Part shown: one piece after another, positions 1,388 to 41,359 of the stretch
How the letters are laid out: every line of letters starts with the position of its first letter
Numbering within the stretch: position 1 is the first letter of the stretch
Virus record (IMG/VR): IMGVR_UViG_3300037041_000399
Location: 14,237-78,236 of that record
Source: a virus
Strand: one strand, 5' to 3'
DNA: 64,000 nt
Notes under the pieces: model-generated
The model's database searches: none
What the model was told of the DNA's origin: nothing
Seen by the model: the letters and a program-made list of their open reading frames with translations, nothing else
Program-made: the position numbers and the translations under genes

Positions 1388-1951
1388 ATGAAAAGTGTAA
1401 GAAGAAGTATGGCTCTTAAGGGCAATACAAATGCTAAAGGAGCTAGAGGTGGCGCTACTGTTGGTGCTATTGGCGGTTTATTTGGTGTACCAGGCTCTTT
1501 AGTGGCTGGTATGGTTGCACAGAATCATGCCAACAAGTCATTAGGCACAGCTAATAAAGCACAAGGCGAACGTGTTCTTAGTAGACAACGTAAGGCGTCA
1601 ACTGGAATCGGAGCAGCTTCTGTAGGCGCATCGATTGGTTATAAGTCGGCGATGATGGCTAGTCCTGCAACAATGCTAGCAGGTTTTAAAGGTGGCTCTA
1701 TGATATCGAGTGCTGCGTTAGCTTCTGGCGTTGGTATGACAAAAGGAATGGTTGTTGCTGGAGTAGGCGGTGCTGTTGCAGGTGCTATTATTGGTGGCGG
1801 TATGAATTACTTAGCCTCTCGTGCTGGTTCTGCAATTATTGGAAGTCCTGAGAAAAAGAAAAATGTAGCGCGTGATGTAAAAGCACTACAAGCACACATG
1901 AAGGCAGGTAAACCCTTATCTGCCACTAAGATGACTAAACTCGCTTATTAG
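1388..1951 (+). CDS. Basic Gly/Ala-rich protein with glycine-zipper-like hydrophobic segments
   Basis: ORF with RBS (aaggag); GxxxG repeats (GATVGAIGGLFG, GVGGAVAGAIIGGG); Lys/Arg-rich termini; no Cys. Confidence 0.6.
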   Translation: MKSVRRSMALKGNTNAKGARGGATVGAIGGLFGVPGSLVAGMVAQNHANKSLGTANKAQGERVLSRQRKASTGIGAASVGASIGYKSAMMASPATMLAGFKGGSMISSAALASGVGMTKGMVVAGVGGAVAGAIIGGGMNYLASRAGSAIIGSPEKKKNVARDVKALQAHMKAGKPLSATKMTKLAY

Positions 1952-1959: not shown

Positions 1960-4900
1960 ATGGCCGTTAATGCTAACACACAAATTTATGACAAGACGCT
2001 AGATCGTGCTGCAATGACACGCCTTTATGAAAGAAGAGTCTCCGGAAAAGTAGATTTAATCATTGATGGCCATGTCCTACGTCTTGACAAATTAATAAAA
2101 GCTTTTGAAAGTATGAACCCCTTTCGTAAAGAACTGGATAGAGAACTTACAAAGACTTACAAAAATGTAAATAATACTGTACATAAAGACTTATTGTCTT
2201 TAACAACAGACCAGTTATCTTTTGCCTATCAAAAGGTGGAAGTAGCTATGGGTAATATTTGGCGTACAGAAAGACCTAAGCAAAGAGTTGCAGAAGAAAT
2301 AGCACTAGCAAATCCACTTCACAAAAACCAAACAATGGAACAAGGTTGGAGTGGGATTGCTAATAATGAAAAGATTAGACTAGAAGCTGTAATACGTAAA
2401 GGTATTGCTGACGGAAAGACAATGGACCAGATAGCTCTTGAAGTTCGTACTGGTAATGTACATAAGATTACAAGAACACAAGCTAAGGGTTTAGTTATTA
2501 CTGCTGTTACTTCTGTGTGCTCTCAAGCTGATCATGCAATCTATAAAGCAAATGGTAAAGCCTTACAAGGGTGGCAATATGTATCTGTTCTTGATGCTCG
2601 CACAACCCCTATCTGCGCTGGTCGCGATGGGCATATTTATGACATTTCTGATACTGTACATCTCCCTCCAGCTCATTGGCATTGTCGTTCAACAACTACT
2701 CCTGTGTTTAAATCATGGGAAGATATGTCAAAGCTTGAAGGAGTTGCACAGGTTCGTAAACGAAACTTAGCAGGACTTACGGATGATCAGAAAGCCTTTT
2801 ATGATGGCAATACACCATTAAGAGAAAGTTATAATGACTGGCTGCTAAGACAACCTCAAGACATCCAATTAAGACACTTAGGTGATTATAAAAAAGTTAG
2901 TATGTTTAATAGTCAGCAGTTAACTTTAGACAAATTTACGAATGATGAAGGCAATACTATTGGTATTACTGAACTGAGACGTATGACGGACTCTACGTAT
3001 ACTCTTCCAAATGATACACAAAAGTTTGCTAATGCTAAAGCTAAATTAGATGCGATGCAATTACATGCAACAACGCCTGAAGCCTTTTATCAAGATACAA
3101 AATTAGTAAATACATTAAGAGATTATTATTTATTACAAGCTGGCGAATTAGATGGTACTCTATCCCTCACAAACTATCGCGGTTCCCTCTTACATACCAA
3201 GAAGGCTACCAAATCACGAGTACTCAACAGCTTGCCAACAGAAGAGCAAACAATCTTCAATCCAGTTACAGGTCGTTACGAAGACGTCAGATTGTACCAA
3301 CCAAACGTTGAGGTATTAAATAATAACCTAAGATTACTACGTGAAAGCCCTGTATTAAAGCAAGAAGATAAAGACTTCATTGAGAAGTTTATTGGCAGTC
3401 TTGATGAAAAGATGGGTGCTAATGAAAGAGCTGCTGTAGCAGATAATCTTCGTATTATATTCACTAGGTTCCGTAATAACGGAGAGCAATGGGGTAACTT
3501 CAAGGCTGTAGTACAAGGTCAGATTAAGTTTGATGTAATGAATGTATCAGATTCTCTTGAAACACAATTAAGAAGAGATACTGATGTACTTAAGAAATTA
3601 ACGCAAGACAATTACATTGACCCTATACTAGGCCCTACTCAGCTACAAGATCTTCATGATAATTTTATCAACAATATTCGTGCTAGAAATAACTGGGAAG
3701 ATAGTGTTGCTCCTAAGATTGCTAGAGAATTACGCAATGTATTTGATTACAAGATACCTATTAAATTAAAAAGAATGCCTAATGGCAAAGAACGATTATC
3801 AGAAGCTGATTTAGATCAATTTTATTTACGATTTGCGCACAGATTAAGTATGGCAGATATGCCGGATAGAGATCAATTTGCAGTTGCATTAGGACGTGAC
3901 TTATATAATATGTCAGGCTTAAATGGTAATCGCAAAGAATGGTATGATTTAGGGATGTCAATGTTAGAAGCAAAGAATGTTACTAAGTTCTTTGAAGTAG
4001 AAACATTTGGCGTTCAAAAGCGAAGAATGAAAAGCAGATTGAGCAACAGTCTGTTTGGCCCTTATTATGACACTCTGTCATATAACATACGGGTTACTGA
4101 TCCTCGTGTACAAGAGTATGCGCAGCTCACAAGGAAAGTGGAAGTCGGCCTACGTGTTGGCGTTACATCTGAGAAGAACAAGTTGCTATTCCGCGAGGGT
4201 TATAAAACGTACTTTATTGACAGAGGTCTCCTAGGTTTAGAAGATACTCGTATTCCCATTACATCTACAAACAGCTTTAGTGATTTTCCTGAACAATTTG
4301 TTGATAAGAACCTAGCTAATGCTTTAAATTGGGCATCAAAGTCTAAGTATAAAATTGACGAAGATTTTTATGATTTTACAAAGAAATTATTGTACTTCGA
4401 AGATGATAGAGGCAACGCTAAGAAGTATAACGAATTGAATGAATATAAACACTATATTTCTTCTAGGGGAGATGCCTATGAAAGATTCAAATCGATGGAC
4501 TGGTTACGGACACGAGGATATTCTTTTAGTAATCATGCTTTTGTTGACCATCGTGCTCGTATATATGATCGCGGACTCATTAGTCCTCAGTCAGGAGAGT
4601 CCTTCAGACCATTCCTTAATACCGAACAATCAAAAGTGTTGGGTGAGGCTGGATACAGAAACTTCAGAGACCAAATAGGTGCATTTATGGGCGGTCTTAA
4701 TGATACTTTTGAAGGGCGATATAATTCATTATCCTTTACTGGTAGACAAAAGATTGCTGATAAGCTATGGCCAGATATGGTAGATATTGGCAACAAGATG
4801 CTACGTGGTAAGCCTGCTGATCTTCGTGCTATATTAGAATCAGAAATGGTACAATTAGTAGATGGTGAAGAACTAGGCAAGTTCTTTAGGTTTGCTATGG

Positions 4901-7275
4901 AATCAGCTAAGATAGATAATCATTTAAAAGCTGGTGGTACTATGGAAGACTATAAGACAGCCTTAGCTTTAGAACAAGATGCTTCATCTTCTGGTGCTCA
5001 AATTATTGCATTAACAACAAAGAACAAACAGTTAGCTGAATTATCTAATGTTGTACCTACAAATCAAAAACGTAGATTGTACGATGAGATTGCTGCTGCC
5101 ACTTATAATGATCCTCGTTTTAAAGTATTAAACGAGAAGTTGGGGTTAAATGAAAAAGATTTACGGAAGGCGGCTAAAGCTCAGAACATGGTTACTTTTT
5201 ATGGTGCAGGTGAACGAACTGGCATCCTTAATGTGGAAGGCAAGCTCGCAAAGATTTTGGAAAAGGCACCTGCAAAGCCTATAGAGGTTAAGGTAACAGA
5301 GGGTTTGTTATCTGAAAGACAAGACTCAGCTGGTTTACTACGTGTATTAGGTGTTGAAAACAAAACAGATCCAAATTATGTAGGGACTCCCGAAGAGATT
5401 ATTAAAGCTCAAGGTGATCTAATTGCTAAAGCTATGAAAGGTAAGTTATCTCCTGCAGAATTAAAAGATACATTTAAATGGTTACATACTGCTGATATTG
5501 AATTGACAGATGCTCGTAGAGAAAGAGCTACATATAAAACATTTGATCATAAGACTGGTGAAAAATTCTCTAAAGAAAAGATAGCTGAAAATAAGGCTAA
5601 ATTTGAACAGCGCTCAAAAGGCGATACTAAGAAATATATTGCTATGCAAGTTGTAGAAGAACTCGGTGAGTTTTTGGATGAGCATTTAAAATCTTTAAAT
5701 GTCCCTTCCAATTCAAGAGCTTTTAAATTACTAGAAGCTCAAAAGCGTATCTTAAAGTCAAATAGATTTGGTGAAGACACTATTATTAAAGATGAAGCTA
5801 GTGTTTATAATTTAAAGACAAATAAACAAGCTGCTGAAATGGCTTTAGAAGATGCAGAATTTACCGTTGCTACAGCTGATACTGAAAAGACTATAGCAGA
5901 TCTTAACTTAGCATTACAAGAAGAATTAGTCAATGTAACTAAAAAGCCTGAATCTTTTGCATCTACTTTAGTTGTTAAAGCATCTGATCGTGATAAGGTA
6001 CTTAATGAAATATCTGCAAGAGCAGCGAGATACGAAAGGTTTGACCCTGAAACAGCTAATGAGCTTAAAGAACTCAGAGCGAATGTACGAGATATCTTTA
6101 ATAAAGGTCAGGATCCTGGCGACGATATTATGGAAGCGCTCTACTTCCTCGATCCAGAGACTAAACAGTTAGTTGAAAAGATGTCTCATCAATATGGCAG
6201 AGTCGTAACACCTGCTGACTTCCAAGCTATTGCTAAAATTATGTCTGAACAGTTAAGTGAGCAAGTACCTATCTTAAAAGACTTTACTAAGTTCTTTGGT
6301 AGACTTGCTGAAGACTTTTTAATTAACTCTAAGCCTTCTAAATCTGCATTTGATTGGAAAGATATTGGTGCTACTGGTATTCTAGGCACACGTAAGAGAG
6401 GTTATGTACTACCTGATCGTGTGAGTGAAATACTAGGGTTAAAAGCTGGTGAGCCTCTGTCTGAAAAGTTTTTGAGCAGATTTAACGGATGGAAACCAGA
6501 CGGACCTTTATCGGACTTACTATTTGGTGTTAAAGCACCAGATAATAGACGTACAGGTTTTAAAGTCTTTAAATTAGAACCTATTGAAAAAGCAACTATA
6601 TCAAAAGGTTTTGAAATATTCTATGCAAATAAACTTCCTACGTCATGGACTAATGTGCCTTGGGTTAATTTTGACGGTAAAATTATCGAACAAAATTTCA
6701 CTCAGACATTTGAGGAGCGTCTAGCTTATAAGGATAAAGACGGGAATTGGGTTAACAATATACTACAAATACCTCAAAAGACAGAAGCTACATGGTGGGA
6801 ACAAGTCGTAAACGCAGATGGGAAAATTAATGATATCGCAGACGCAGGAAAAGCAAGAACAGCTTTTGCCGTTAACGGGAACCATTCCAACGACGCCACA
6901 TTGGTCAAGAATTTCCATTTGTGGGGAAAGGAAAATGATATTGCCACAAGTACAATCCACGATGCCTTCTTTGCAAACGCAGCAGATATGCTCAATGCAA
7001 GAGCAGGGATTAGAAAGTTGTATGCACGAACTCTTGATGCGTCACCCGTCTTATCTACTCTGAATGAGATGAAAGCTCGCGGGTTGCCTAAAGAACTATA
7101 TGATCAGTACTTACAAGAAGCTATTGACAAGGGATTAATACCTGTAGAAGGGGTGTCCGTTGTTGGCGGCAAAGTACTAAAGAAATCCGATATTCTCACC
7201 AAAGAGAATATTATGTCAGATATACCTGATCCTACTAAATTTGAGGATGATTGGGGTTTTTATGGCATAGGCTGA
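1960..7275 (+). CDS. MuF/SPP1-gp7 head morphogenesis protein fused to a T7-family single-subunit RNA polymerase (candidate virion RNAP)
   Basis: aa ~205-250 WQYVSVLDARTTPICAGRDG...PPAHWHCRS (Phage_Mu_F signature); RNAP motifs DHRARIY (D863), A: EQDASSSGAQ (D1007), B: R1069-x3-K1073-x7-Y1081-G, C: NGNHSNDA...TIHDAF (D1668). Confidence 0.9.
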   Translation: MAVNANTQIYDKTLDRAAMTRLYERRVSGKVDLIIDGHVLRLDKLIKAFESMNPFRKELDRELTKTYKNVNNTVHKDLLSLTTDQLSFAYQKVEVAMGNIWRTERPKQRVAEEIALANPLHKNQTMEQGWSGIANNEKIRLEAVIRKGIADGKTMDQIALEVRTGNVHKITRTQAKGLVITAVTSVCSQADHAIYKANGKALQGWQYVSVLDARTTPICAGRDGHIYDISDTVHLPPAHWHCRSTTTPVFKSWEDMSKLEGVAQVRKRNLAGLTDDQKAFYDGNTPLRESYNDWLLRQPQDIQLRHLGDYKKVSMFNSQQLTLDKFTNDEGNTIGITELRRMTDSTYTLPNDTQKFANAKAKLDAMQLHATTPEAFYQDTKLVNTLRDYYLLQAGELDGTLSLTNYRGSLLHTKKATKSRVLNSLPTEEQTIFNPVTGRYEDVRLYQPNVEVLNNNLRLLRESPVLKQEDKDFIEKFIGSLDEKMGANERAAVADNLRIIFTRFRNNGEQWGNFKAVVQGQIKFDVMNVSDSLETQLRRDTDVLKKLTQDNYIDPILGPTQLQDLHDNFINNIRARNNWEDSVAPKIARELRNVFDYKIPIKLKRMPNGKERLSEADLDQFYLRFAHRLSMADMPDRDQFAVALGRDLYNMSGLNGNRKEWYDLGMSMLEAKNVTKFFEVETFGVQKRRMKSRLSNSLFGPYYDTLSYNIRVTDPRVQEYAQLTRKVEVGLRVGVTSEKNKLLFREGYKTYFIDRGLLGLEDTRIPITSTNSFSDFPEQFVDKNLANALNWASKSKYKIDEDFYDFTKKLLYFEDDRGNAKKYNELNEYKHYISSRGDAYERFKSMDWLRTRGYSFSNHAFVDHRARIYDRGLISPQSGESFRPFLNTEQSKVLGEAGYRNFRDQIGAFMGGLNDTFEGRYNSLSFTGRQKIADKLWPDMVDIGNKMLRGKPADLRAILESEMVQLVDGEELGKFFRFAMESAKIDNHLKAGGTMEDYKTALALEQDASSSGAQIIALTTKNKQLAELSNVVPTNQKRRLYDEIAAATYNDPRFKVLNEKLGLNEKDLRKAAKAQNMVTFYGAGERTGILNVEGKLAKILEKAPAKPIEVKVTEGLLSERQDSAGLLRVLGVENKTDPNYVGTPEEIIKAQGDLIAKAMKGKLSPAELKDTFKWLHTADIELTDARRERATYKTFDHKTGEKFSKEKIAENKAKFEQRSKGDTKKYIAMQVVEELGEFLDEHLKSLNVPSNSRAFKLLEAQKRILKSNRFGEDTIIKDEASVYNLKTNKQAAEMALEDAEFTVATADTEKTIADLNLALQEELVNVTKKPESFASTLVVKASDRDKVLNEISARAARYERFDPETANELKELRANVRDIFNKGQDPGDDIMEALYFLDPETKQLVEKMSHQYGRVVTPADFQAIAKIMSEQLSEQVPILKDFTKFFGRLAEDFLINSKPSKSAFDWKDIGATGILGTRKRGYVLPDRVSEILGLKAGEPLSEKFLSRFNGWKPDGPLSDLLFGVKAPDNRRTGFKVFKLEPIEKATISKGFEIFYANKLPTSWTNVPWVNFDGKIIEQNFTQTFEERLAYKDKDGNWVNNILQIPQKTEATWWEQVVNADGKINDIADAGKARTAFAVNGNHSNDATLVKNFHLWGKENDIATSTIHDAFFANAADMLNARAGIRKLYARTLDASPVLSTLNEMKARGLPKELYDQYLQEAIDKGLIPVEGVSVVGGKVLKKSDILTKENIMSDIPDPTKFEDDWGFYGIG

Positions 7276-7324: not shown

Positions 7325-7789
7325 ATGGAAATTACACAAGACTTCTTGAAAAAGAATTATCATTATGGAGATGGATTTTTATATTCTATTACTACAGGAA
7401 ATTTAGTGGGTCATTTCAATGGGAGTGGGAGAGTTCAAATTACAATAAGACTAAATGGCAAAAAGAAACAATTTTATGCTCACCGTCTTATTTTCCTCTA
7501 TCATAATGGGTATTTACCAGAAATTGTAGATCATATTGATAGAGATCCTGCTAATAATAGAATAGAAAATTTAAGAGCGGCAACACCAACAGAAAGCTCT
7601 TGTAATAGGATTACACCAAATGCTTCAGGCTATCCTGGTGTAGATAAGTATAATAAAAGATGGCGTGCAAAAATTAGATATCAAAATAAATATATACATA
7701 TAGGATATTTTGATACACCTGAAGAAGCTTATAAAGCTTATAATACAACACGTCTAGAATTACATGGCGAATTTGCGCCACAAGGGTAA
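7325..7789 (+). CDS. HNH homing endonuclease with C-terminal AP2-like DNA-binding domain
   Basis: YAHRLIF...VDHIDRDPANNRIENLR (HNH_3) then SGYPGV...WRAKI...IGYFDTPEEAYKAY (AP2). Confidence 0.9.
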   Translation: MEITQDFLKKNYHYGDGFLYSITTGNLVGHFNGSGRVQITIRLNGKKKQFYAHRLIFLYHNGYLPEIVDHIDRDPANNRIENLRAATPTESSCNRITPNASGYPGVDKYNKRWRAKIRYQNKYIHIGYFDTPEEAYKAYNTTRLELHGEFAPQG

Positions 7790-7792: not shown

Positions 7793-7927
7793 ATGAATAC
7801 TGAAATTAAAAGATGTAATTGTAAACACGAAGCGCAAGATAAACTCCACGGCAATGGGATGCGAGTTATGAATGCAACTCAAAAGAAAGACTTCCGTTGC
7901 ACTGTATGTGGAGCAACACATAAGTAA
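7793..7927 (+). CDS. 44-aa putative zinc-binding protein (not in ORF track)
   Basis: MNTEIKRCNCKHEAQDKLHGNGMRVMNATQKKDFRCTVCGATHK; CxC..H and CxxC motifs. Confidence 0.6.
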   Translation: MNTEIKRCNCKHEAQDKLHGNGMRVMNATQKKDFRCTVCGATHK

Positions 7928-7944: not shown

Positions 7945-7961
7945 CCCGTTAAATTAACCCT
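7945..7961 (+). promoter_or_regulatory. Repeated motif CCCGTTAAATTAACCCT, copy 1 (putative phage RNAP promoter)
   Basis: 16-nt core occurs 5 times, always in intergenic DNA and the same orientation; AATTAACCCTCA matches the start of the T3 promoter consensus. Confidence 0.75.
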
Positions 7962-8029
7962 CAGCCGTCTCCCCCTATATTATAATTAATTATAATGATA
8001 TATAATATAATATATATCTCTTATATAAC

Positions 8030-8054
8030 CCCGTTAAATTAACCCTAAATATAG
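8030..8054 (+). promoter_or_regulatory. Motif copy 2, putative late promoter for scaffold/capsid genes
   Basis: CCCGTTAAATTAACCCTAAATATAG; in T3 register (-17 at 8037) it gives TATA at -4..-1 and G at +1 (8054). Confidence 0.8.
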
Positions 8055-8127: not shown

Positions 8128-8775
8128 ATGTCTACCGAAACTGATGAAACAAAAACACAAGAAACTAATACTCCTGCTCCGGATAGTACTACTACCACTC
8201 CTCCTGTGGATGACGTGGACAGCAAAATCCAAGAAGCACTTAAGCCTATCAAATCGAAACTCGATAACGCGTATAAAGAGCGTGACGAAGCTTTAAGAAA
8301 AGCAGCAGAGTATGAACAGAAAGAAAAAGAAGCTAATATAGCACGTCTACAAGAAGAAGGAAAACACAAAGAAGCTTATGAACTTCAGTTGGCAGAAGCT
8401 AATGCAAAATTAGAGGCTGTAACAAAGCGTAACATAGAGCTTGCTCGTGATGCAGAAATTAAATCTGTATTAGCAAGTTATACGCTTAGAAATGATAAAG
8501 CTCGAGATATGGCCTATATGGATATAGCTAGCCAACTTGTACAAAATGAACAAGGTGTCTGGATTCACAAGAGTGGTGCTGATCTTAGAACGTTTGTAAA
8601 ACAATTTTCTGAAAACGACGATAATTCTTTCTTGTTTAAACAAAAAGCATCATCAGGTGCAGGTAGCACTTCATCTAGTACTACGCCTTCTACTGACACA
8701 AAACCGAAATCAATATTTCACATGTCTCAGGAAGAGGTACTAAAACTTGCGGCGGAAGGAAAACTACGCCAATAA
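8128..8775 (+). CDS. Capsid scaffolding protein
   Basis: Acidic/Thr-Pro N-terminus, coiled-coil core, S/G-rich linker and short C-terminal helix; directly upstream of the major capsid gene. Confidence 0.8.
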   Translation: MSTETDETKTQETNTPAPDSTTTTPPVDDVDSKIQEALKPIKSKLDNAYKERDEALRKAAEYEQKEKEANIARLQEEGKHKEAYELQLAEANAKLEAVTKRNIELARDAEIKSVLASYTLRNDKARDMAYMDIASQLVQNEQGVWIHKSGADLRTFVKQFSENDDNSFLFKQKASSGAGSTSSSTTPSTDTKPKSIFHMSQEEVLKLAAEGKLRQ

Positions 8776-8794
8776 ACTACTAAGGAATTAAAAA

Positions 8795-10015
8795 ATGGCT
8801 GCAACAAGCGTTAACTATACCAGCGGAACATCTGGTAATAATAACAATTATGTATTACAAGAAGCTATTGGTGCTTATAGCGATGAAGCTTACACCACTG
8901 CTCGTAAACTTTCTGGTACTGGAATCACATCTAGCAACCCACAAATTGATACTAACACAGAAACCTTTATTGGTCAAATGCGTTGGTTAAAACCTTTAAA
9001 TCCAACTATCAATATTGCGTCTTTAACAGATGCTACTGATGGTGCTAAAACTAACTATCAATCAGAATTTAGTACTTACATTAAAACTGTTCGTACTCAT
9101 GGTGCTGAAAAAGTCAACATGACTGAAGTAGTTACACGTCAAGATGGTTTAGCTAAAATTGGTCGTGACTTTGGCGAAACTCGTGCGCAAGACGAACACA
9201 ATGCAATTCTTTCTGTATTGAAAGGTGTTGCTATTTCTGAAGCACTATTAGGCACTGGCACAGGCGGCTTAGGCGGCCAAACTTTCACTAATGATCCTAC
9301 AAGCATGAACAACGGTTTCTACGTTGATTTAGGCTCTACAGGTAAAATTGTTAGTGCTAATGGTGTATCACCTGCTGGTGTTGCTAACTATGCATACCAA
9401 GGTGCATCACGTGCAGAAAGCCTTTTAAATGCGTTCGGTCAAGCTTTCAAAGACTACGAACCAGAATGGGCATACTTAGCTGTGTCTCCTGAAGTATTAG
9501 CGTCTTTCCGTTCAGCTAATTTCGTTGATGAAATTACTATTACCGAAGGCAACATGAACTTCCAAACAATCTTCAATGGTAAATTCCGTTTGATTGTTAC
9601 ACGTGCTAACCAATCTTTAAGCACTGATGAATTGACTGCCCTTAACTTAGGTGCTGGTGTTGACATTACAGGTACTAAAACCTCATTTATTATCTTACCT
9701 GGTGCTATTGCAATGGAATCATTAGCAGTGCCTGATTCTACTGAAGTATACCGTGATGCTAACAAATACAAAGGTGGTGGTGTTACTTCTGTCTGGTCAC
9801 GTTGGGGCTATGTATTAGCACCTGCTGGTTATGACTGGAATGGTGATGTAACTAAATTCCCAAGTGATTCTGATTACTCTCAATTCCGTGCTGCTGGCGC
9901 AACTGTTGCTGCTACTGGTGTTAATGCAGGTAACCGTGCAAGTGTACAAGGTGCTTGGAAACGTAAAGCGTCTTCTGCATTGTCTTTAGGTATCTTGCCT
10001 GTATTCCATTCTTAA
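8795..10015 (+). CDS. Major capsid protein
   Basis: 406 aa, strongly biased codon usage, strong RBS, position between scaffold and head-tail adaptor. Confidence 0.8.
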   Translation: MAATSVNYTSGTSGNNNNYVLQEAIGAYSDEAYTTARKLSGTGITSSNPQIDTNTETFIGQMRWLKPLNPTINIASLTDATDGAKTNYQSEFSTYIKTVRTHGAEKVNMTEVVTRQDGLAKIGRDFGETRAQDEHNAILSVLKGVAISEALLGTGTGGLGGQTFTNDPTSMNNGFYVDLGSTGKIVSANGVSPAGVANYAYQGASRAESLLNAFGQAFKDYEPEWAYLAVSPEVLASFRSANFVDEITITEGNMNFQTIFNGKFRLIVTRANQSLSTDELTALNLGAGVDITGTKTSFIILPGAIAMESLAVPDSTEVYRDANKYKGGGVTSVWSRWGYVLAPAGYDWNGDVTKFPSDSDYSQFRAAGATVAATGVNAGNRASVQGAWKRKASSALSLGILPVFHS

Positions 10016-10025
10016 GGAGTAGGTT

Positions 10026-10502
10026 ATGGCACTCGTTAAAGGTGTTAATTCTTATGCTAATTTGACAGAGGCCGATACTTATTTTGAAAACAAGTTAGAC
10101 GTGGCTGCTTGGCTTGATGCTGCTGATACTCAAAAAGAGCAAGCATTATGTACAGCCACAGCTATTCTCGATGAATTGGTATGGATCGGAGTCATTTATG
10201 ACCCTTCTCAAAGTTTGGCATTCCCTCGAAAAGATGCAGAATACTTCGATCCTAAACAAGGTACTATGGTAGAGTTATCTGGTATTCCATTGAGAATAAC
10301 AATCGCTACCTATGAACTTGCATATCATCTTTTAAACAATGATGGTCTATTTGATGACACAGGCATGGTAAAGAATCTTAATTTAGGTGATATTAGTTTA
10401 CAGACAGTGATGCCTGCTAACAAAATACCACGTATTGTAAGAAGCTATATCAACCCATTACTAACTAATAGTGGTGCAAGAACATGGTGGAGGGCTAACT
10501 AA
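10026..10502 (+). CDS. Head-tail adaptor (DnaT-like / SPP1 gp15-type)
   Basis: NSYANLTEADTYF...QSLAFPR...ATYELA motif pattern; position after capsid gene. Confidence 0.75.
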   Translation: MALVKGVNSYANLTEADTYFENKLDVAAWLDAADTQKEQALCTATAILDELVWIGVIYDPSQSLAFPRKDAEYFDPKQGTMVELSGIPLRITIATYELAYHLLNNDGLFDDTGMVKNLNLGDISLQTVMPANKIPRIVRSYINPLLTNSGARTWWRAN

Positions 10503-13917: not shown

Positions 13918-16900
13918 ATGTCAGGTATAGTCATCGAAGTCGAAGCAAAGGTATCCCAAGCAGAGACTTCATTAGAACGATTAAACGATGTAGTACGAAA
14001 TATCACAGCAAGCCTTAAAGCTGTTGATAAAGGATTGGAAAATCTATCACTTAAGAAAGAAGTTCCATTAGACAAAACAGAGAAAGCTTTAAATAATTTA
14101 TCACCTAAAATCGATAAGTTGCAAAGCAGCACTGATAAGTTATTTAAAGGTTCTTCTAATGTAGATAATCGATATTCAAAGGAATTTGTTAATATTGGTG
14201 TATCTGCAGAAATGGCAGGTAAGCGAGTAGAAAAGGCTTTTAATGATATTACATTAAAACCTAACGATGCTGCATTAAAAAGTTTTTCATTTGAAATTGA
14301 TAGAACATCTAGAAAGATATCTAAACAAATGTCAGAAGGTATTTCTAAAAAAGATCTTAGAGATACTGAAAGTAGTCTATTAAACATAAATAAAAGTATT
14401 ACAGGTATTTCAGGTAATATTACAAGTGCCGTTGGTTCTATTGGTACTGCAATTGCCGCTTTTGGCTCTATTGCTACCATTGGAATGTTTGTAAAATCAC
14501 TATCAGATATTACGTCATCTTTTACTGAAATAGAATCTAAGATTGCAATGGTAACAGGGCGTACTGTTGCATTCTCAGAAGCACAACAAGCACTGTTAAA
14601 AGTTGCTGCAGAGACACGTACTACCTATGGAGCTACTGCAGATGCCTTCTCAGGTGTTGGGCGTGCTATGAAAGACGTTGGGGCAACTAGTGAGCAACTG
14701 TTCAGAGTTACTAAGGTATTGCAGCAATCGCAGGCGTTGTCTGGCGGCTCGTCAGAGGGCTTTAAAGCGGCAATGATGCAGTTGAATCAAGGCCTTTCTT
14801 CTGGCGCACTACGGGGCGAAGAACTCAATTCTGTGCTAGAACAGGCACCTGCTATTGCAGACGCACTTGCGCGGTCTTTACACGTTTCTGTAGGCGCATT
14901 AAAAGGAATTGCTGAACAAGGTAAACTAACAACTTCAGTAGTTTTCAGTTCATTGCTAAAGCAAGCCGATTATATTAATGATAAATTCAAAGCTATTAAC
15001 CCAACGCTAGGCAATGCAATGGAAGCTGGCTTTGAAGGTGCTAAACGATTTGCCTTTGAATTAGACAAAGGATTAGGTCTCTCTCAAGATCTTGCAAAAG
15101 CTGTTTCTAAACTAACATCCGGGTTAGGCACAAAAACCAGTGGCATTAGAGTCTTTGCAGCTGACTTTGATGTACAATTAAAAGAAGCAATTATACGTGT
15201 TAAATCGTATATGCAGCCTTTGACACAAGTCGTTACAGCACTGGGGCAAGAATTTTATAGAGTATTTTCTTCTTGGAAAATTCCAGAAGGTTCCCAAAAG
15301 CCTCTAGATGATCTGATACGTAAGTTTACAATATTTAAATTTGTACTTACGCATACAGACCCTGGAACAGATACTAAGATTTTATTTAGAAAAGTAGAAA
15401 CTGCAATTGTAGACAGTGTAAAAACTATCAGTGATTTATTAGATAAGGGGATAAAACTTAGCGATAAGTTTATTATGCCTATTATTGATAAGATTAAAGA
15501 TTTGTATCCTAAAGCCAGAAAAGCGTTATTAACAACCCTAGATGGTCTCAGAAGTGTCATAAAAGAATCAATGTCAGTACTTGCTGACGGCTTTGAAATT
15601 GGTGCTGAATTTGTTAAACCTATTATTAGAGAGTTGACTAAGCTGCCAGATCAGCTAATACTAATTTTTAATAAAGTAGCCAAGGCTTTAGGTAGTGCTG
15701 CTTCTGCTACCAGTTCGCTTGCTGATGGCGTTGCAGATTTATTAGATTCTGTTACCCTTAAAGTAGGTGATTTAGACGGTATTTACGAGTACTTAAATAG
15801 CTTTAAAGATAAAGTAATTACTATCTTCTTTAAAATATGGGATGCAGTTATTGGCCACTCATGGTGGACTGATACAATTGATAGTATTATAGATACTTCC
15901 AAGTCTCTTTGGGAAAAAGCTTCTCCTGGCCTTATACGCTTTAGAGATAGTATAATTGCGTTATTTAAAACTATTGCTAGTACGGTTACTACAGCATTTA
16001 ATGATGCTATGGTTAAGCTTAATATAGAACCTAAATCAGTCTCATTTAAAATACCAATAAGTATAGATGATGCTAAGGTACAATTTGAAGGCGTGTATGA
16101 CAGCTTTGTAAAAACGTTTGATAAATTTAAAGATGATTTCCCTTTACTATTCAAAGCAATAGCAGCAGGCGTTGGTGCGATTCTTGTAGGAATGTTCTTA
16201 CCTTCTGGCAATTTTGTATTATTGCTTGAAGCAGCTTTAATTTCAGCTTCGATTCAAAGTGCTACAATGTTTGCAGAAACAATTGGCAGAGACTTAGGGG
16301 ACGCAAGCCTTTTAGCTGGTTTAGGTAATAACTTAGGTGCTGCAGCTGGAAAGCTCTTTGCATCATTCCTTGCTAATATGCCACTACTTGTTAGCGCATT
16401 CCTTGGCTTTATTAGTGAATTTACAAAAGAATTCTTAAAGCAATTACCTATCATTGGAGTGGCATTTAAAGCTCTCTTCGGAATAGCTGGTGCCTTTGGC
16501 ATGGCAGGGCCTTTAGGTCTTGTAGGTGCTATATTCTTCGGCAGAGGTATATTAGGCATAATGGCAACATTTGGCTTTTATACTGAAGCGATAACGGGCT
16601 TCATGGCAAAAATGGCAATTCTTGGTAACTTCTTTGGAGGCGGTGGCGGGTTAATCTCTAGGTTATTATTTGGAGCAGGTAGAGCTTGGCATTTTCTTCC
16701 TATATTAGGATTAATAGCATCTCTATCAGGTGCTTTTGATGCATTGTATAATGATTCTAGTCTGAGTGCTTTAATCATTAATGGCGGTTTAATCTATTTT
16801 GCAATCTTTGGTAAAGGCGGTTTAGCTGGATTTGCTAAAATAGGTATGTTAGTTCGTGCTAATATTGTAGGCATACTATCAGAGTTTACTGCAACAGCAG

Positions 16901-19900
16901 GATTAGCATCTAGTATTGCAGCTGGCGGTGCCTTTGGTCCAATGTTAATGGCTGGTATTCGTAATTTCAGAAACTTCTTTAGAGGTGTTTCTGCGATGTC
17001 TGCAATGTTTTTCTCTTCTTCATTGAGCAGTTGGGCACAATACTTTACCAGATGGATAGCAGTTACAGGCTTTTCTGGCAATATACTTAGATTCTTTAGA
17101 ACCTTTTATTTAAATATCTTTGGTCCAATTACTGCAGCCTCATATTCCTTTGCACCGTTAGCACAATCTTTTGTAGCTGCAATTAGTGCTATGAAAGCAG
17201 CTGCTGTAAGCTTTATAATGACTGCAAGAACTGCAGGTATTGCGATGGGCGGCTGGCTTGCTGCACTGACAAGAATGTTATTAGGTGGACCAGGGATTTT
17301 AATACTTGTTGGATTAATTGCTTCTTTATTTAGCAAATCAGCTGATGCTGCTGAATCCTTTAGAGAAGAAAGTAACAAAGGTTTCTTTGAAAACTTAACT
17401 GATAATATTGCTAATCTTGATATTATAGGCTATTTTAGAGGACTGAAAGATAAGCTTGATGCAATTGATTTTGGAGGGATGCTTGGTGTAAACTTTAAAG
17501 TCTCTATATATGCTGCTCTAACAGCAGTCACTGCGGCTTTAATGCTGTTTAGTACAAATGTACGTAAAACACTTATGCTCTTGGCTGGCGACTTGTTAGT
17601 ATTTTCAGGTAAAGCTTTATTCAGCATTGCAGCATTATTTAGTCCTGTAGAAGTTTTAGCAGCTGGCGCACTATTGCTCAAAGCAGGCTGGTGGGCTGGT
17701 GTAAACCTCAATAGAGGTTTAACAATGGGCTTTGCGCTTAAAGATACTATTATCTCAATTATTATGAGACTTCAGGCAACAGCAGCTTTAGCTGGTGCAA
17801 TGAGAACCTTGGGCATAACAATGGCTGTCGGATTGTTAGGAGCGTTTTCTGCAGAGGCTATTGGATTTGCAGACTTCTCAGCAATGTCTGTGTTAGGCTT
17901 TACTGCAATTGCCGCATTTATTTATCCTATTTTAAACGGTTTAACGGTGATTCCTGCTGCTATTACTGCAGCATTTACTGGCGGTACGATTATGCAAGCT
18001 ATTGGTGTATTATCGGCTAGAATATTATTGATGTTTGCACCATTAGGCTTAGCTGCTGCAGGTGCCTTTGCAGGCGCATGGGCAGGTGGCCAGTTTGGTG
18101 ATGACATGGCTATGATAGGTGGACTTGCTGGCGCTTTGTTAGCCTTTAAGTTTACTGAATCAATTATGACAGGTATCACTGAGTTCTTGGCTGTTGGTGC
18201 AAGACTCATGACATTAGGTTGGGTAGGTTTAGCCTTAACAGCTGCTGGACTTATTTATGCATGGTTATTTGGTAGTGACAGTACTTCATTATCACAAGAT
18301 TTAGATAGTATAATTGAAAAGACTCGTACGCTGTTTGGTATGAAACCTAATCCTGTTGATTTTAGAACTGGATTGCGTTTAGATGATTTACAAGCAGCTG
18401 CAACAATGGGTATTAAGATTGATTATAAAATTGATCCTATTAGTGCTGCATTAGCTTCTGACTCCTCCAAAGAAGCTGTAACAAAAGCCACAGAAGATTT
18501 AGCACAGGCTATTAGAGATGCAAAAGCAGATTGGGATATTTCAGGTTTAACTCAGGATCAAAGAGATCTATTACAGAAGAAAGTAAAAGCTACTGCAGCT
18601 CGTGTTGATGCCGCTTCTGCTTCTACGCCTTTTGTATTTAAAGACTTTGGAAAGAACTTGACCCAAGCTCAAAGATATCGTCCAGATACTCTTTGGGGGC
18701 AATTGCAAAGACAAGGTGCACAAGCAGCTTTAGATGCTGAGTTTGAAGTTAAATTAAAGCAATTGTCTATAGCAAGTAGAATGCCATGGAACCAGACATC
18801 AGCTGCTAGATTAGATCTTAAAAGCCAAAGAGATGCAGTTTCTCTTTCTAAAGATACTACTTACAATGCTAACTATTCTCCATTAGATGCTGAAACAGCT
18901 AAGTTAGCGCAACTTACAAAAGGCTTTGATAATCTTGGCCCTGTTGGTCCTAAGATGATGGCGCATCTCAAAGATACTGGTAGAGAGATTATAGCTCTAA
19001 CTAAGCAAATAAATGAGAATAAGTATTGGTTCTGGGAGCACCCTAACGGTAAGATATGGGAAAATGCTGCTCCAGATCCTAAGCTAATTGCACAAATGAA
19101 AATGCTTCGTGCAGAGTATAAATCAACTGCAGAAGATATTGTGCGTTATAGTACTCTCATGAAAGCTGCTCAATCTTTTGCAGGCAGAATAAGTTCTATT
19201 GCTAGCAAGTTTGATATGAAAGGTGTTGAAAGTAAATTAGACACTAATAAAATATTTGCTAATAGTGACACTGCTGTTAATCGAATGGAAAAGCTTGGTG
19301 AAGCTGCTGAAAGACTTTCTAAAAGCCTTGAGGGTGTATTTGATGTAAAAGCTAAGAATGATATTATTCTTAATATTGAAGAAGTTGTTAAGCAGAAAGA
19401 AAGACTTAAAGAAGATTCTGTACAGTCTTACAAGTATGCATCTCCTGTAATACCTAAGATGGCAGAAGAATTAGGATTAGGTGCAGGCAAAGCAGCTGCA
19501 GGATTACCTGAAAATATATCAGGCCCTGTATTAGCACGTATGACTGAATTAAAAAGACAACGTGAAGACTTTTTAAATAAGCCAGTTAGACCTGTAAATC
19601 CTGATTTAGTGCCTCAAGACTTTGTAAAAGAAACTGCGCAAAATAAGCATGAAACAATGGTATACCAAGGTGATATGCGCCTTTGGCAGACCCGTAAAAA
19701 GAACCAAGAAACTGTTATTAAAACACTTGAAGAAGAGTTTGCAAATAATAAACTAGGTTCTACGCAAGCTGCATTAATTCAGGCTAAAAGAGAAGCCACT
19801 AAGATCCAGATGGAGGAGCCTGTTAAGCCAGCATTAGCAATGCTAGATGCTAAAGCACAACAAGCTAAAATGGAAAAGCTTCGTATTGAATACAAACAGA

Positions 19901-22900
19901 AATTAGAAATCTATAAGAATGATAATTTTGAGTATTTTGATAAGTACATGAAGAATCTTGTTGAGTCTTTTGATCTTGGTGACGAGTTACGTAAAGAGCT
20001 TTGGAGCAATGTCAAAACAAAACCAGGACAAATGGCGGATGTTGCTAATAAGCTTAATATTGATATTGGCGATTTGTATAGTACATTTGGTGCTGATGTA
20101 GCTGCAGGCTTACTACAACAAGCTGATGATGTTGCTGCTGCTATTGATCGTGCTATGGCTACTCAACAGTACGATAAACTACCAGCCTTAAAGCAACGTA
20201 AGGCCGCATTGACAACTAGAATGGCAACCCCTGAGTTTAAATCTCGTGGTGCTATGGCAGAATCAATGGGACTTGATCAGAGTTTAATCCCTGGTATTAG
20301 CACAGACGTTTTAGATTCGTTAGAAGCTGGTTACAAAAAGATTAAAGAAATTGATACGTATCTTGAGATGAACAAGAATACTATTAGCGATGCCACTTAT
20401 CAAGCTAAGATACAAGAGAAGTTAAATGAACAACTCTCAGGAAAGAAAGCTGCGTTAGATGCTAGCTTTGGAAGACCTTCTTTTGAACTTCAAGCACGTA
20501 TAGGAACTAATCTTACGGGTGCTCAGTTATCATTAATCTCACAAACAGATGTAGATAACTTAAAAGCTGCTGAATTAAACTTAGCTAAAATTAAATTAGA
20601 CTTAGATGGTTCAAATGCTAATGCAGATACTTTGACAGACTATTTCAAAGCACTAGCAGATGAAGCTGAAGCTCGTTATCAAGCATCTCGTAATGCTGCA
20701 TCCAAAACAGGTGCAGGAATGATGCAATCACTAGCTGATGTTAATTTTAGTGGTGCTAGTAAACTTAACTTGTTACCTCCTGCAATTGTACAAAATGTAA
20801 TTAAGCTTAGTAACTATATTAAAGATCTTAGACATAATCTAGAACAACCAACCTCTCCTGAAGCTTTTATTGCAATTAATAAAGAAATTGCTAAAACAGA
20901 AGAGGCGTTAAGTTCTATCAGAGATCAGTATACTAGTCTCCAAGACAAAATTAGTTCTGTCAATGAAGTGTTTGGCGTTAGCTTTAGTAATATTGATTTT
21001 GTATCGTTAGGCTCTTCTTTGACTAGCACTTTGATAACTGTTGCTCAAAGTCTTAAAACAGAACTTGCAAAAGAAATGGAGAAAGGTTTCTTAAGCGTAA
21101 GAGCTGAGAGTATTATTAAGGTATTAGATAGCTTAACTACAACTGGTACTTACTTAAAATTCTTTGCTGACTTTAAGAAAAATGCTAGAGAAAGTTTAAC
21201 AGATGGAATGAAATCTGCTTTTGATAAGATTAAATCAATTGCACCTAACTTTGGCTTTAGTCAAAATCAATTCCAAATGATGGATAAAGGTTCTCGTGAC
21301 CAATATTCCAAACAAGCTTCTGACATAACTGCATTAACAGCTATTCAAGGGCTAAATGGTTTAACACAGAATCAAACAGATATCATCAATCAAAAACAAC
21401 CTGTTGATGAAATGATGAAGCAACTGATTGATTCGTTTGATACTAATCAGTTAAAACAGTATGAAAAGCTAACTTCATCTCCTGTAGATCTTCAATTAAA
21501 AGCTGCTGATATACAATTAGAAGCTGCTAAAATGAACCTGGAGGCGGTTAAAGGCAAGGCACCTGAAGTAACAACACCTTTCAAAGAAGCTTCTAAGCAA
21601 ACTACAGAAAGAGCTTTAGCCACAGGCCCACGAAGTGGTGTAACTTCATTAGCTGAAATGGCTAAGGATATTCCTTGGTCAGCTAATGCGCCTAAGCCTA
21701 AATTTAGACCTGATGTAGAACGGTGGGATTCATTAATACAAGACGCAGTGAAAGAATTTCCACGTGTAACAGTAGAAATGGTTAAGGCCGTTGTTGAACA
21801 TGAATCTCGTGGATTAAATATTAAGTCAGGCATTACTCCAAAACCAGGTTATAAAGAAACCTCATTTGGATTAGGTCAGTTTAATGATGCTACTGCTAAA
21901 ACATTTGGAGTTGATAAGACAGATCCTGCGTCTACAATAAGAGGTATTGCACAATATTTATCTCTAAATATGAAAACGTTTGGAAATACTCGTGATGCCT
22001 TTAGAGCATATGCCGTTGGGCCGACAGGTGCCAAACAAGGTTTAGGTCAAGATAAAGCTGATGAGTTTATGACTACATTAGCAACTGGACGTGCGCCTAA
22101 ATCTGCACCTGTAACTACTTCTCCTGAGCTTATAAAGCCTACTGCTGAATCTGTTGCTAAATCTATTGAAGTCGCTGTTTCAAAACAAGGGGAGCTTAGC
22201 AGAGCTTTCAATGTAGACCTCATGGCTAGGATTAAAGAAATAGGTAAACAGAAACCGTTTGAAGCATATCAATTGGATAAACTTCAAAATCAGATTAACC
22301 CAAATGTTAGTACTCCAGCAGAATTATTATCTACTCATGGAGCTAAACTTGGCACTGATATTGTCGGTCAGATGAATGAAACTCAGATATCTTTGGCTAC
22401 ATCTCTTAACGAAAAATTGATGCAAGTTCAGCAACAATTTAATGCAAATCCAAGTACAGCTTTGCAACAAAGTATTACTACATACTCAGAAATGTTAAAA
22501 GCATTTACTGAAGGTGTTACAGCGGATGCTGAAGAGCTTGGTATAGCTAAGATGGTTGCATTCTCTTCTGCCAATTCTACCAACATCAGTAAATTCTTAA
22601 GTAGATTTAGCGGTATCAGTGAAGAACTTGTCATGACAATGAATGAAGCTGATAAAGCTTTAGCAAAGAATATGACAATTATTCGTGAGGATCTAAAAGA
22701 TAAGCTAGCAGCTGACGCTAAAGCTGGTAAATCAACTACTGCTACTGCACTTAAAATATTAGATTTAAGCGATAATATTTCAGACCTAGGTAATAAGGCA
22801 ATGGATGCAGCTAAAGAAATTAAAACAGCTGGTGAGTCTTTTGCTTCTGGATTTACATCTTCCTTTAAAGACGCTTTCAAAGGTTTAATGAATCAAGATA

Positions 22901-39890: not shown

Positions 39891-39933
39891 ATGTATAAGA
39901 TAGTGCCAACAACTAACTTTAAAGGTGAACAAC

Positions 39934-40080
39934 ATGAATCCAGTACAAGCAGCACAAGCAGCAGTAGACGCGAAATTATTAGCAATGAAGATCGAACATG
40001 ATGCAAGAATTAAAGCATTAGATGAAGATAAAGAATTCGCTAAAATGCTAGCAGAAATGCAAGCTAAGCTTAAATGCTAA
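39934..40080 (+). CDS. 48-aa coiled-coil early protein (not in ORF track)
   Basis: MNPVQAAQAAVDAKLLAMKIEHDARIKALDEDKEFAKMLAEMQAKLKC; RBS aaggtg. Confidence 0.55.
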   Translation: MNPVQAAQAAVDAKLLAMKIEHDARIKALDEDKEFAKMLAEMQAKLKC

Positions 40081-40084
40081 TAAA

Positions 40085-40112
40085 AGACCTGAGTAGGTCT
40101 CTAAACTGCTTA
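40085..40112 (+). ncRNA. H-type pseudoknot RNA motif, copy 1
   Basis: AGAC-C-TGAGTA-G-GTCT-CTAAAC-TGCTTA; covaries with the copy at 45170. Confidence 0.65.
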
Positions 40113-40167
40113 GTGTCTAAGGGATGTGTATCCCATACTGATGATGGTTCAAAAGAACCGAAACACT
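40112..40167 (+). ncRNA. Type III hammerhead ribozyme
   Basis: GUC cleavage triplet 40115-17; stem I TA-A-GGGAT/ATCCC-A-TA; CUGAUGA 40138-44; stem II GGTTC-AAAA-GAACC; GAAA 40160-63; stem III AGTGT/ACACT. Confidence 0.85.
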
Positions 40168-40187
40168 TAATTATTTGGAGTATTACT

Positions 40188-41298: not shown

Positions 41299-41304
41299 AA
41301 CAAA

Positions 41305-41359
41305 CCCTCTCTGGCTCCTTCGGGAGCTGGGGAGGGCTTTCTCTCTTATTTTTTTTTTT
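41305..41359 (+). terminator. Long cUUCGg hairpin with displaced T11 tract
   Basis: CCCTCTCTGGCTCC-TTCG-GGAGCTGGGGAGGG, 12-nt spacer, T11. Confidence 0.75.

Follow-up and report, generated by a model that had tools for sequence, protein, structure and literature searches.

We analysed a 64,000-nucleotide stretch of a viral genome, hereafter the window. This genome was assembled from metagenomic data, and its ends overlap by 127 bp. All genes have the same orientation, and G+C content is ~37% over the first 12 kb of the window. At the locus of interest, a gene encoding a MuF head protein fused to an RNA polymerase (RNAP) lies within the late head/structural operon, downstream of the portal gene. 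The features referred to below are as follows.

1–1385, + strand: portal protein, 530 aa (Pfam DUF4055; PHROG 145 'portal', E 9e-48); the gene begins at genome position C1:14029, 207 nt before the window
1388–1951, + strand: 187-aa ORF without cysteine, between the portal and MuF-RNAP genes
1960–7275, + strand: MuF-RNAP fusion gene (P0001), 1771 aa, a single stop-free ORF
1960–2994, + strand: MuF/SPP1-gp7 head-morphogenesis domain, aa 1–345 (Pfam PF04233, PHROG 241)
2995–3756, + strand: region between MuF and the T7-superposable part, aa 346–599, conserved and mostly helical
3757–7272, + strand: T7-type single-subunit RNA polymerase, aa 600–1771, reaching the C-terminus (AlphaFold model, Foldseek, VIA)
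4546–4560, + strand: D863-H-R865-A-R867, a T/DxxGR-type motif equivalent to T7 D421...R425
4972–5001, + strand: motif A, EQDASSSGAQ, with catalytic D1007 (alignments)
5164–5211, + strand: motif B, R1069...K1073...Y1081-G-A-G (the intron site in EBPR siphovirus 1)
5269–5958, + strand: insert module after motif B, aa ~1104–1333, ~230 aa (low-confidence prediction)
6952–6969, + strand: motif C, TIHDAF, with H1667 and catalytic D1668 (alignments)
7325–7789, + strand: free-standing HNH-AP2 homing-type endonuclease (Pfam HNH_3, 1e-16, and AP2; PHROG 99)
7793–7927: 44-aa CxC/CxxC ORF, downstream of the HNH-AP2 gene
7945–8047, + strand: promoter-like 16-mer CCGTTAAATTAACCCT in two copies (starts 7946 and 8031), before the scaffold and capsid genes
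8128–10015, + strand: scaffold (8128–8775) and major capsid protein (8795–10015) (PHROG 206, 247)
41557–43776, + strand: stand-alone canonical T7-like RNAP, 739 aa, 10 cysteines (Pfam RNA_pol, 1.9e-68)

A preliminary description had placed the fusion between the portal and scaffold genes. The head cluster setting stands, but the 187-aa ORF intervenes upstream, and the HNH-AP2 gene, the 44-aa ORF and two promoter-like motifs intervene downstream. The 187-aa ORF has no match in Pfam or PHROG and is missing at the equivalent position in phage DSS3_VP1. Neither Pfam nor PHROG identified a prohead protease gene between portal and capsid. We found no + strand terminator ahead of the fusion gene and no enrichment of sigma-70-like sites. 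Rfam, at gathering thresholds, gave zero matches in the window. The genome also encodes a Toprim primase-helicase, a T7-like DNA polymerase and a tape measure protein of 3826 aa, which points to a very long tail.

As first described, one ORF runs from 1960 to 7275 on the + strand, encoding 1771 aa with no stop. MuF and RNA_pol are the sole Pfam domains of its product. Phage_Mu_F (PF04233) matches aa 142–246 (E 1.3e-13; 52 bits, cut-off 29.6) and PHROG 241, 'head morphogenesis', matches aa 53–380 (E 4e-58). Hence, the N-terminal ~340 residues do form the complete MuF/SPP1-gp7 protein originally claimed. Scanning the complete genome returned this gene as the only PF04233 match (57.9 bits). Hence, the head function of MuF must come from the fusion. 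Within the domain, the PPxHxxCRS motif (aa 236–244) is invariant among aligned homologues. Comparing a model of the N-terminal 640 aa with 48,161 PDB chains turned up only helical bundles of a generic kind (Z <= 9.4) and no solved MuF-like structure. Complex prediction with the portal (530 aa) and MuF aa 1–345 scored 0.00, which counts neither for nor against docking. The region that follows, aa 346–599, is modelled with a pLDDT of 84 and has invariant residues in the homologue alignment (G408, K414, R420, P435, T437, Y446 and P448). It is probably a linker together with the beginning of the polymerase N-terminal domain.

The remainder of the protein resembles T7 RNAP. PF00940 (RNA_pol) matches in two stretches at E 1.8e-11, scoring 44 bits (cut-off 22) and, when the whole genome was scanned, 45.8 bits. 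PHROG 414, 'RNA polymerase', matches aa 861–1092 (E 7.5e-22). An AlphaFold model (m93051ad0ea75) has a T7-type fold, with Z of 28 to T7 and mitochondrial RNAPs. Mean pLDDT was only 65, with core segments at 80–95. The best Foldseek match was T7 RNAP (1cez, E 5e-12). Using VIA, ~520 residues superposed on T7 and mitochondrial RNAPs (Z 27.9–28.4, rmsd 3.3–3.9 Å, 16–18% identity), extending to T7 residue 883, the C-terminus. The N4 mini-vRNAP scored lower (Z 19.5, 10% identity). The sequence itself is very divergent; phmmer against T7 RNAP gave an E of only 0.1.

Catalytic motifs were identified by alignment. The segment VDHRARIY (aa 863–869) pairs with T7 MDWRGRVY, and IHDAF (aa 1666–1670; H1667, D1668) with T7 IHDSF. 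D1007, in EQDASSSGAQ, pairs with motif A of the phage's second RNAP. The spacing of R1069, K1073 and Y1081 equals that of T7 R627, K631 and Y639. All catalytic residues named in the preliminary description are present, and D863, R865, R867, D1007, K1073, Y1081, H1667 and D1668 are conserved. However, R1069 is not invariant, being Q in homologue P0108 and A in DSS3_VP1; the adjacent K1070 is nearly invariant. D1007 and D1668 correspond to T7 D537 and D812. D1007 is invariant even when a 32-sequence distant set is included, all 13 aligned homologues have K1073 and Y1081, and D1668 is nearly invariant. The catalytic aspartates, the motif B Lys and Tyr, and the DxRxR and HS.D motifs persist down to ~20% identity. 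Mean identity is 76% for palm and fingers (aa 851–1100), 71% for aa 1561–1771 and 62% for MuF. In the distant set, the corresponding values are 36%, 31% (C-terminal part) and 28%. Judged by its intact motifs, this part of the protein is apparently a divergent yet complete T7-type RNAP, predicted to be active.

The ~230-aa insert after motif B is missing from most relatives. Some orthologues instead carry the module ~95 aa further upstream, before motif A. It has no Pfam match and no Atlas lead. It does not resemble an intein. Two unrelated giant proteins also contain the module: P0195, of 3748 aa, and P0198, which carries GGDEF.

Searching for the combined MuF and RNA_pol architecture confirmed that it is widespread. 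Among metagenomic protein clusters, 344 match the fusion protein at E<=1e-3, nearly all with both PF04233 and PF00940. MuF is present in 30 of 32 diverse full-length representatives (18–52% identity). In IMG/VR, 529 loci encode a relative, many of full length, and the cultured roseophages DSS3_VP1 and DSS3_PM1 (Naomviridae) share the fusion. The clade may extend from freshwater phages, possibly with Flavobacterium hosts, to marine Naomviridae. One relative, EBPR siphovirus 1, appears split and has the region annotated as three genes. The break lies inside motif B, where a group I intron that carries an HNH ORF interrupts the gene. Briefly, exon 1 ends ...KAQNMV and exon 2 restarts TFYGAG...; the 5' splice site follows a U and the last intron base is G. 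The fusion is real, ancient and deeply conserved.

Cysteine content distinguishes the polymerase part from other enzymes of the phage. The fusion protein has only three cysteines (C187, C219 and C242), all in MuF, and none in aa 350–1771. The post-MuF part is cysteine-free in 127 of 136 full-length homologues. The DSS3_VP1 orthologue has none in its 1113 post-MuF residues. N4 gp50 likewise has no cysteine in 3500 aa. In contrast, cysteine makes up 1.0–2.2% of non-virion RNAPs (the phage's second RNAP, that of DSS3_VP1, and N4 gp15/gp16) and 1–2% of the phage's second RNAP and replication enzymes. Hence, as in N4, the second RNAP contains cysteine and the putative virion polymerase has none. 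Such avoidance is not confined to ejected proteins: cysteine is missing from the capsid and scaffold proteins too, while the portal has six.

The second RNAP is a conventional enzyme (phmmer against T7 RNAP in the PDB, 2e-44) encoded among the early and replication genes. The same pairing of fusion and second RNAP occurs in DSS3_VP1 and in more complete IMG/VR relatives (G001, G002, G004 and G008). Pairwise BLAST and fold link the two polymerases of the phage; hhalign of the fusion family against the second RNAP gave a probability of 2.6%, with no profile link beyond the motifs.

We also searched for promoters. The T3-like 16-mer has seven intergenic copies in the genome and is the only over-represented motif. 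It precedes late, early and replication blocks alike and is assignable to neither RNAP. A further element, GCGGAAA-N5-GTATCTTATATGAAGTAC, occurs twice in the early region (38275 and 39387) as an imperfect palindrome with poor hairpin potential. Two copies and a poor hairpin were insufficient, and we rejected it as a promoter for a virion enzyme. N4-style hairpin promoters were sought and not found. When the sequences preceding the second RNAP gene were aligned from 10 relatives, no conserved block emerged.

N4, a podovirus, encodes an established ejected virion RNAP, gp50. Virion RNAPs are also known in crAss-like phages and AR9/PBS-type jumbo phages. The preliminary description named virion RNAPs from N4-like podoviruses, with none known to have a MuF carrier. 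It omitted crAss-like phages, AR9/PBS-type phages and P23-45. Like gp50, the fusion places a T7-family RNAP module in a large protein of the virion module, with its gene among late structural genes. Also as in N4, there is a second, early-expressed T7-like RNAP, with the 739-aa enzyme in place of N4 RNAPII (gp15/gp16). Unlike gp50, which has 3500 aa and no MuF, the fusion has 1771 aa and its polymerase reaches the C-terminus. Its fold is nearer to T7 and mitochondrial RNAPs than to the N4 enzyme. No vRNAP-like protein of ~3500 aa with a polymerase-core match was present among 158 sequence relatives. In gp50, the N-terminal region acts in ejection and the C-terminal region in encapsidation, and there is a zincin-like peptidase domain (PMC5512222).

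A second precedent is the Thermus siphovirus P23-45, in which experiments showed that the virion RNAP gp96 is fused to the tape measure protein (PMC10770324). There too, a long-tailed phage joins an RNAP to a structural protein and a separate, non-virion RNAP continues transcription. Hence, delivery by a structural carrier has precedent in a long-tailed phage, although the polymerase types are unrelated. The proposed carrier here is MuF, not the tape measure protein, and the enzyme is T7-type, not the two-barrel, cellular type.

MuF proteins carry C-terminal effector domains thought to be delivered with DNA (Iyer et al. 2017, PMC5512222), and MuF-RelA_SpoT is another such protein (PMC11806420). 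The fusion shares their layout: an N-terminal MuF, encoded beside the portal gene, and then a variable enzymatic domain at the C-terminus, presumably packaged and delivered with the DNA. The MuF effectors known so far, whether toxins or enzymes that modify the host, span a few hundred residues (RNases, ARTs, RelA/SpoT, PRTases); they often belong to temperate phages and are accompanied by immunity genes. In contrast, the genome here is lytic in style. The fusion does not conform to a MuF polymorphic toxin: the cargo is a ~1400-aa RNAP and the downstream gene encodes the HNH-AP2 endonuclease, with no immunity gene. Iyer et al. considered virion RNAP modules restricted to N4-like phages (PMC5512222).

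The closest described phages are DSS3_VP1 and DSS3_PM1 (PMC8323127). Both carry the fused gene under the annotation 'minor head protein-like' (1463 aa; identity ~31%), with portal, MuF-RNAP, scaffold and capsid in the same order. They also encode a second RNAP of 732 aa and T7-like replication genes. Two papers on DSS3_VP1 mention neither RNAP. These phages infect Ruegeria, differ from the window's phage in base composition, and have dU-substituted DNA made via a dCTP deaminase. No such enzyme is encoded by the window's phage, whose genome lacks dCMP/dCTP deaminase, ThyA and ThyX. Hence, the fusion is not tied to uracil DNA, and we rejected such a link. With T7 RNAP itself, the fusion shares the fold, all catalytic motifs and a polymerase domain reaching the very C-terminus. 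The T7 enzyme (gene 1) is an 883-aa, free cytoplasmic early protein that is not packaged. Relative to it, the fusion is extended by ~600 aa at the N-terminus and carries an insert of 230 aa, and identity in structural alignment is only ~16%.

We propose, with a probability of roughly two in three, that the fusion is a virion RNAP, packaged and ejected to start transcription that the second RNAP relays. As SPP1 gp7 suggests by analogy, the MuF/gp7 domain would anchor the protein, in a few copies, to the portal within the procapsid. The C-terminal ~1300–1400 residues would be an active T7-type RNAP, made late and packaged. At the next infection, this polymerase would exit the capsid with the DNA. 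It could then begin transcribing the first genes independently of host RNA polymerase and fresh protein synthesis. The second T7-like RNAP, expressed from among the early/replication genes, would take over in an N4-like relay. In this scheme, we infer portal docking, packaging, ejection through the long tail and the use of promoters by each enzyme. The sole MuF of the genome, the late head operon and the conserved second RNAP all indirectly favour virion delivery. So do the cysteine-free polymerase, as in N4 gp50, and the catalytic regions being the best conserved. Conversely, a ~200 kDa protein would need to pass a very long tail unfolded. In addition, no promoter class can be assigned to the fused enzyme, and the sole enriched motif heads all block types.

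The polymerase could instead act only in the producing cell, either on late genes or, while packaging proceeds, at the portal or procapsid. In that case, MuF would be no more than a partner for localisation or co-expression, with the RNAP cleaved off or not ejected. Expression of the fusion with late structural genes fits this, and because one promoter-like motif heads all gene blocks, an RNAP made late could use it. However, a stand-alone RNAP is already present and conserved beside the fusion. Furthermore, a cell-bound role offers no obvious reason for a cysteine-free enzyme across >120 homologues, given 1–2% cysteine in the phage's other cytoplasmic enzymes. The lack of a prohead protease gene between portal and capsid speaks against cleavage, and retention of the fusion across very deep divergence speaks against the role as a whole. 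We consider it unlikely.

A packaged and ejected enzyme might chiefly prime DNA replication, or serve as a transcription motor that pulls the genome from the tail. T7 and mitochondrial RNAPs are able to prime DNA replication. All genes are co-oriented, as in phages with transcription-driven genome entry, a line of reasoning that draws on what is established for T7 and N4. The genome also encodes its own primase-helicase and T7-like DNA polymerase. However, with a dedicated Toprim primase-helicase, a priming RNAP is not needed. Pulling of DNA is compatible with early transcription, so this proposal, improbable as a distinct function, is largely a refinement of virion delivery.

An inactive relic, retained as an internal head or ejection protein with a DNA-binding or structural role, would fit the strong divergence from T7 RNAP (phmmer E 0.1; low hhalign probability), the variable R1069 and the large low-confidence inserts. 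Against this, both catalytic aspartates, the motif B Lys and Tyr, DxRxR and HS.D are conserved to ~20% identity, and conservation within the protein is highest in the catalytic regions. The homing group I intron in motif B of EBPR siphovirus 1 is also typical of essential, conserved sites. Loss of activity is thus very improbable. Finally, an artefact joining two genes can be dismissed: although the genome is a metagenome assembly with overlapping ends and EBPR siphovirus 1 has three annotated genes, the ORF is continuous in hundreds of independent contigs and sequenced isolates, and the intron explains the split.

Virion RNAPs and MuF-carried effectors are precedents; the joining of MuF to a T7-type RNAP appears to be new. 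We found no paper describing it in the literature searched, which excluded most subscription journals. To our knowledge, T7-type virion RNAPs were known until now only from N4-like podoviruses. With a virion-carried RNAP, a phage bypasses the host transcription machinery, and defences aimed at host transcription, from the first second of infection. Packaging of the MuF fusion would mean that a widespread siphovirus group shares this strategy with a different, modular carrier. The range of MuF cargo would extend from small toxins to a full polymerase, and MuF would be a general cargo adaptor even for a 160-kDa nucleic-acid enzyme. Enzymology would gain a compact, self-contained, cysteine-free family of T7-type polymerases. 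MuF-RNAP could also explain how transcription starts in dU-DNA roseophages. DSS3_VP1, on Ruegeria pomeroyi, provides a cultured member in which the idea can be tested directly. On balance, we favour the view that a globally distributed clade of ~60–80 kb long-tailed phages has its own route to host-independent early transcription. A T7-type RNAP welded to MuF would be packaged in few copies and ejected through a tail of up to ~half a micron, before a second T7-like enzyme acts. This route would be independent of those in N4, crAss-like phages, jumbo phages and P23-45.

The MuF-RNAP fusion is confirmed. Window positions 1960-7275 (+) form one open frame of 1771 codons, as the preliminary description had it, and base composition shows no break across the gene. 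In Pfam, aa 142-246 match Phage_Mu_F (52 bits, cut-off 29.6) and two stretches match RNA_pol PF00940 (44 bits, cut-off 22). In PHROGs, aa 53-380 match phrog_241 'head morphogenesis' (E 4e-58) and aa 861-1092 match phrog_414 'RNA polymerase' (E 7.5e-22). A fold search with the N-terminal part returned no informative match. The gene and its surroundings are as follows.

Upstream of the fusion gene: portal gene (DUF4055, phrog_145)
Upstream of the fusion gene: 187-aa ORF with no Pfam or PHROGs matches
5269-5958 (fusion aa ~1104-1333): ~230-aa module after polymerase motif B, predicted with low confidence
Downstream of the fusion gene: HNH-AP2 endonuclease gene
7793-7927: 44-aa zinc-ribbon-like ORF (CxC...CxxC), between the HNH endonuclease gene and the promoter-like motifs
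Downstream of the fusion gene: two copies of a promoter-like motif, with the scaffold and major capsid genes

The same architecture recurs in databases. Among 5.8 billion proteins, a word-indexed search matched 344 clusters. Both Pfam domains are present in nearly all of them; the majority are ~1540 aa long and come from contigs reaching 60-108 kb. When 1.84 billion representatives were scanned exhaustively with HMMER, only 158 relatives emerged. Those of full length have 1300-2073 aa, with the polymerase part beginning around residue 600-740. MuF is present in 30 of 32 diverse representatives, and 529 IMG/VR loci encode a relative. Among deposited phages, the polymerase part is shared only by EBPR siphovirus 1, at 57% identity, and by the roseophages DSS3_VP1/PM1, at 31%. 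Published descriptions of DSS3_VP1 mention no RNAP, and we found no description of a MuF-RNAP fusion in the literature searched.

By direct sequence comparison, T7 RNAP is only a weak match (E 0.1), yet the correct motifs align: VDHRARIY (863-869) pairs with T7 MDWRGRVY, and IHDAF (1666-1670; H1667, D1668) with IHDSF. By BLAST, EQDASSSGAQ (D1007) and the NGNHSNDA...IHDAF region align with motifs A and C, respectively, of the phage's second RNAP. Residue conservation was assessed by aligning the fusion with 12 metagenomic homologues and DSS3_VP1. Invariant positions are D863, R865, R867, D1007, K1073, M1077, Y1081, G1082, N1639, H1642, S1643 and D1645; H1667 and D1668 are absent from one truncated sequence only. 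D1007 and R867 remain invariant across 32 sequences, with identity down to 18%. Of the T7-RNAP catalytic residues first proposed, D863 (DxRxR), D1007, K1073, Y1081 and D1668 stand. R1069 is present but is not among the invariant positions. Conservation across the fusion is highest in the catalytic regions, above that of MuF.

For aa 600-1771, the AlphaFold model reaches a mean pLDDT of 65, and 80-95 in core segments. Its top Foldseek match is T7 RNAP (E 5e-12). The model superposes on T7 and mitochondrial RNAPs (Z ~28, ~520 residues, 3.3-3.9 A), as far as the final residue of T7 RNAP. The equivalent Z for N4 mini-vRNAP is 19.5. Hence, the polymerase part is a complete T7-type enzyme, outside the lineage of gp50, the virion RNAP of coliphage N4.

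In EBPR siphovirus 1 (JF412302), GenBank annotates the region as gp47, gp48 and gp49: a head protein, an HNH endonuclease and a hypothetical protein. The three-gene split is, by sequence, a group I intron carrying the HNH endonuclease ORF (~9188-10039), inside catalytic motif B (NMV|TFYGAG). Exon 1 ends ...KAQNMV, and exon 2 restarts TFYGAGERTG right behind the HNH stop codon. A U precedes the 5' splice site and the last intron base is G. The Rfam group I model matches the junction at full length with 40.5 bits, short of the gathering score of 50 (E 1.4e-8). The position of a homing intron in motif B argues that the site is essential and conserved. In a 92%-complete IMG/VR relative (G001), both RNAP genes appear interrupted. 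The MuF-RNAP match covers 6.3 kb, and a TGA separates the two pieces of the second RNAP. G001 may contain more introns.

The ~230-aa module is missing from most relatives. In three orthologues (P0018, P0027 and P0039) it lies ~95 residues upstream instead, before motif A (56-60% identical); other relatives have unrelated inserts at that site. It also occurs within unrelated giant proteins, P0195 (3748 aa) and P0198 (with a GGDEF domain). The module looks like a relocatable domain.

The IMG/VR viral record is complete (78.2 kb), with every gene on one strand. Positions C1:1-127 and 78110-78236 (whole-record coordinates) are identical; this 127-bp end overlap probably reflects the assembler's k-mer, the assembly being circular or permuted, and not a true terminal repeat. 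Features outside the fusion region are as follows.

13918-25398: tape measure protein, 3826 aa, zero cysteine
41557-43776 (+): second RNAP, canonical T7-like, 739 aa (Pfam 1.9e-68; 2e-44 to T7 RNAP)
7946, 8031, 38225, 46530, 60624 and C1:246, 346: seven copies of CCGTTAAATTAACCC(T/C)

From the size of the tape measure protein, the tail should be exceptionally long. After this protein come tail proteins of 2504 aa and 900 aa. G+C is ~37% over the first 12 kb of the window and two homologues, P0071 (RNAP part) and P0308 (portal), are labelled Flavobacterium sp.; together these hint weakly at a Bacteroidota host. Rfam gave no match in the window at gathering thresholds, and none to a hammerhead ribozyme at 40112-40167 when 39900-40400 was searched even at E <= 1.

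CCGTTAAATTAACCC(T/C) is the sole over-represented sequence in the genome. All copies are intergenic and co-oriented, and stand before the terminase, capsid, early, replication and accessory blocks. Three run on into a conserved CCGT..CCCCCT..ATTAT(A/T)AATT extension. The AATTAACCCT core is similar to the T3 promoter. The motif may belong to either of the two RNAPs. Neither a motif present twice in the early region nor the regions upstream of the second RNAP in relatives yielded a firm promoter candidate.

Small early-type ORFs form a block ahead of the second RNAP gene, and replication genes follow it. At 41300-41360, between the small ORFs and the gene, a strong hairpin that resembles a terminator carries a long T run; several relatives have comparable hairpin and T-run elements ahead of the RNAP gene. 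The pairing of MuF-RNAP with a second RNAP is also found in DSS3_VP1 and the more complete IMG/VR relatives. The fusion gene belongs to the late structural operon, and no + strand terminator precedes it. The fusion is the only MuF homologue in the complete genome. Hence, it must itself perform the head function.

The fusion has three cysteines, all within MuF, and none in aa 350-1771. The post-MuF part is also cysteine-free in 127 of 136 full-length homologues, as are the phage's capsid and scaffold proteins. Cysteine makes up 1.35-2.0% of its second RNAP, DNA polymerase, primase-helicase and terminase. We used N4 as the established case for testing this idea. None of the 3500 residues of N4 gp50 is a cysteine, against 1.1-2.2% in N4 RNAPII, DNA polymerase, primase and helicase; DSS3_VP1 has a matching split. 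Cysteine avoidance, which extends to the capsid and scaffold proteins, falls short of proof, but it is an independent conserved signature that places the fused polymerase among virion proteins and apart from cytoplasmic enzymes.

One survey states that virion RNAP modules are confined to N4-like phages (PMC5512222); small effector domains are a known cargo of MuF (PMC5512222; PMC11806420). The siphovirus P23-45 has a virion RNAP fused to a structural carrier; that enzyme is of the two-barrel type and its carrier is the tape measure protein (PMC10770324), whereas here a T7-type enzyme is joined to MuF. The dU-DNA deaminase of Naomviridae was not found in the window phage, so there is no fixed link between the MuF-RNAP design and uracil DNA. 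The N4 relay is functionally the closest system. As in N4, there are two very different RNAPs, one encoded among head genes and the other among early genes. By architecture and structural distance, however, the fusion stands outside the gp50 family. From the sole MuF, the late-operon site, the conserved second RNAP and the cysteine pattern, we infer that the fused polymerase is packaged as a virion enzyme. The original proposal, that MuF is a tag delivering a packaged RNAP, is partly supported.
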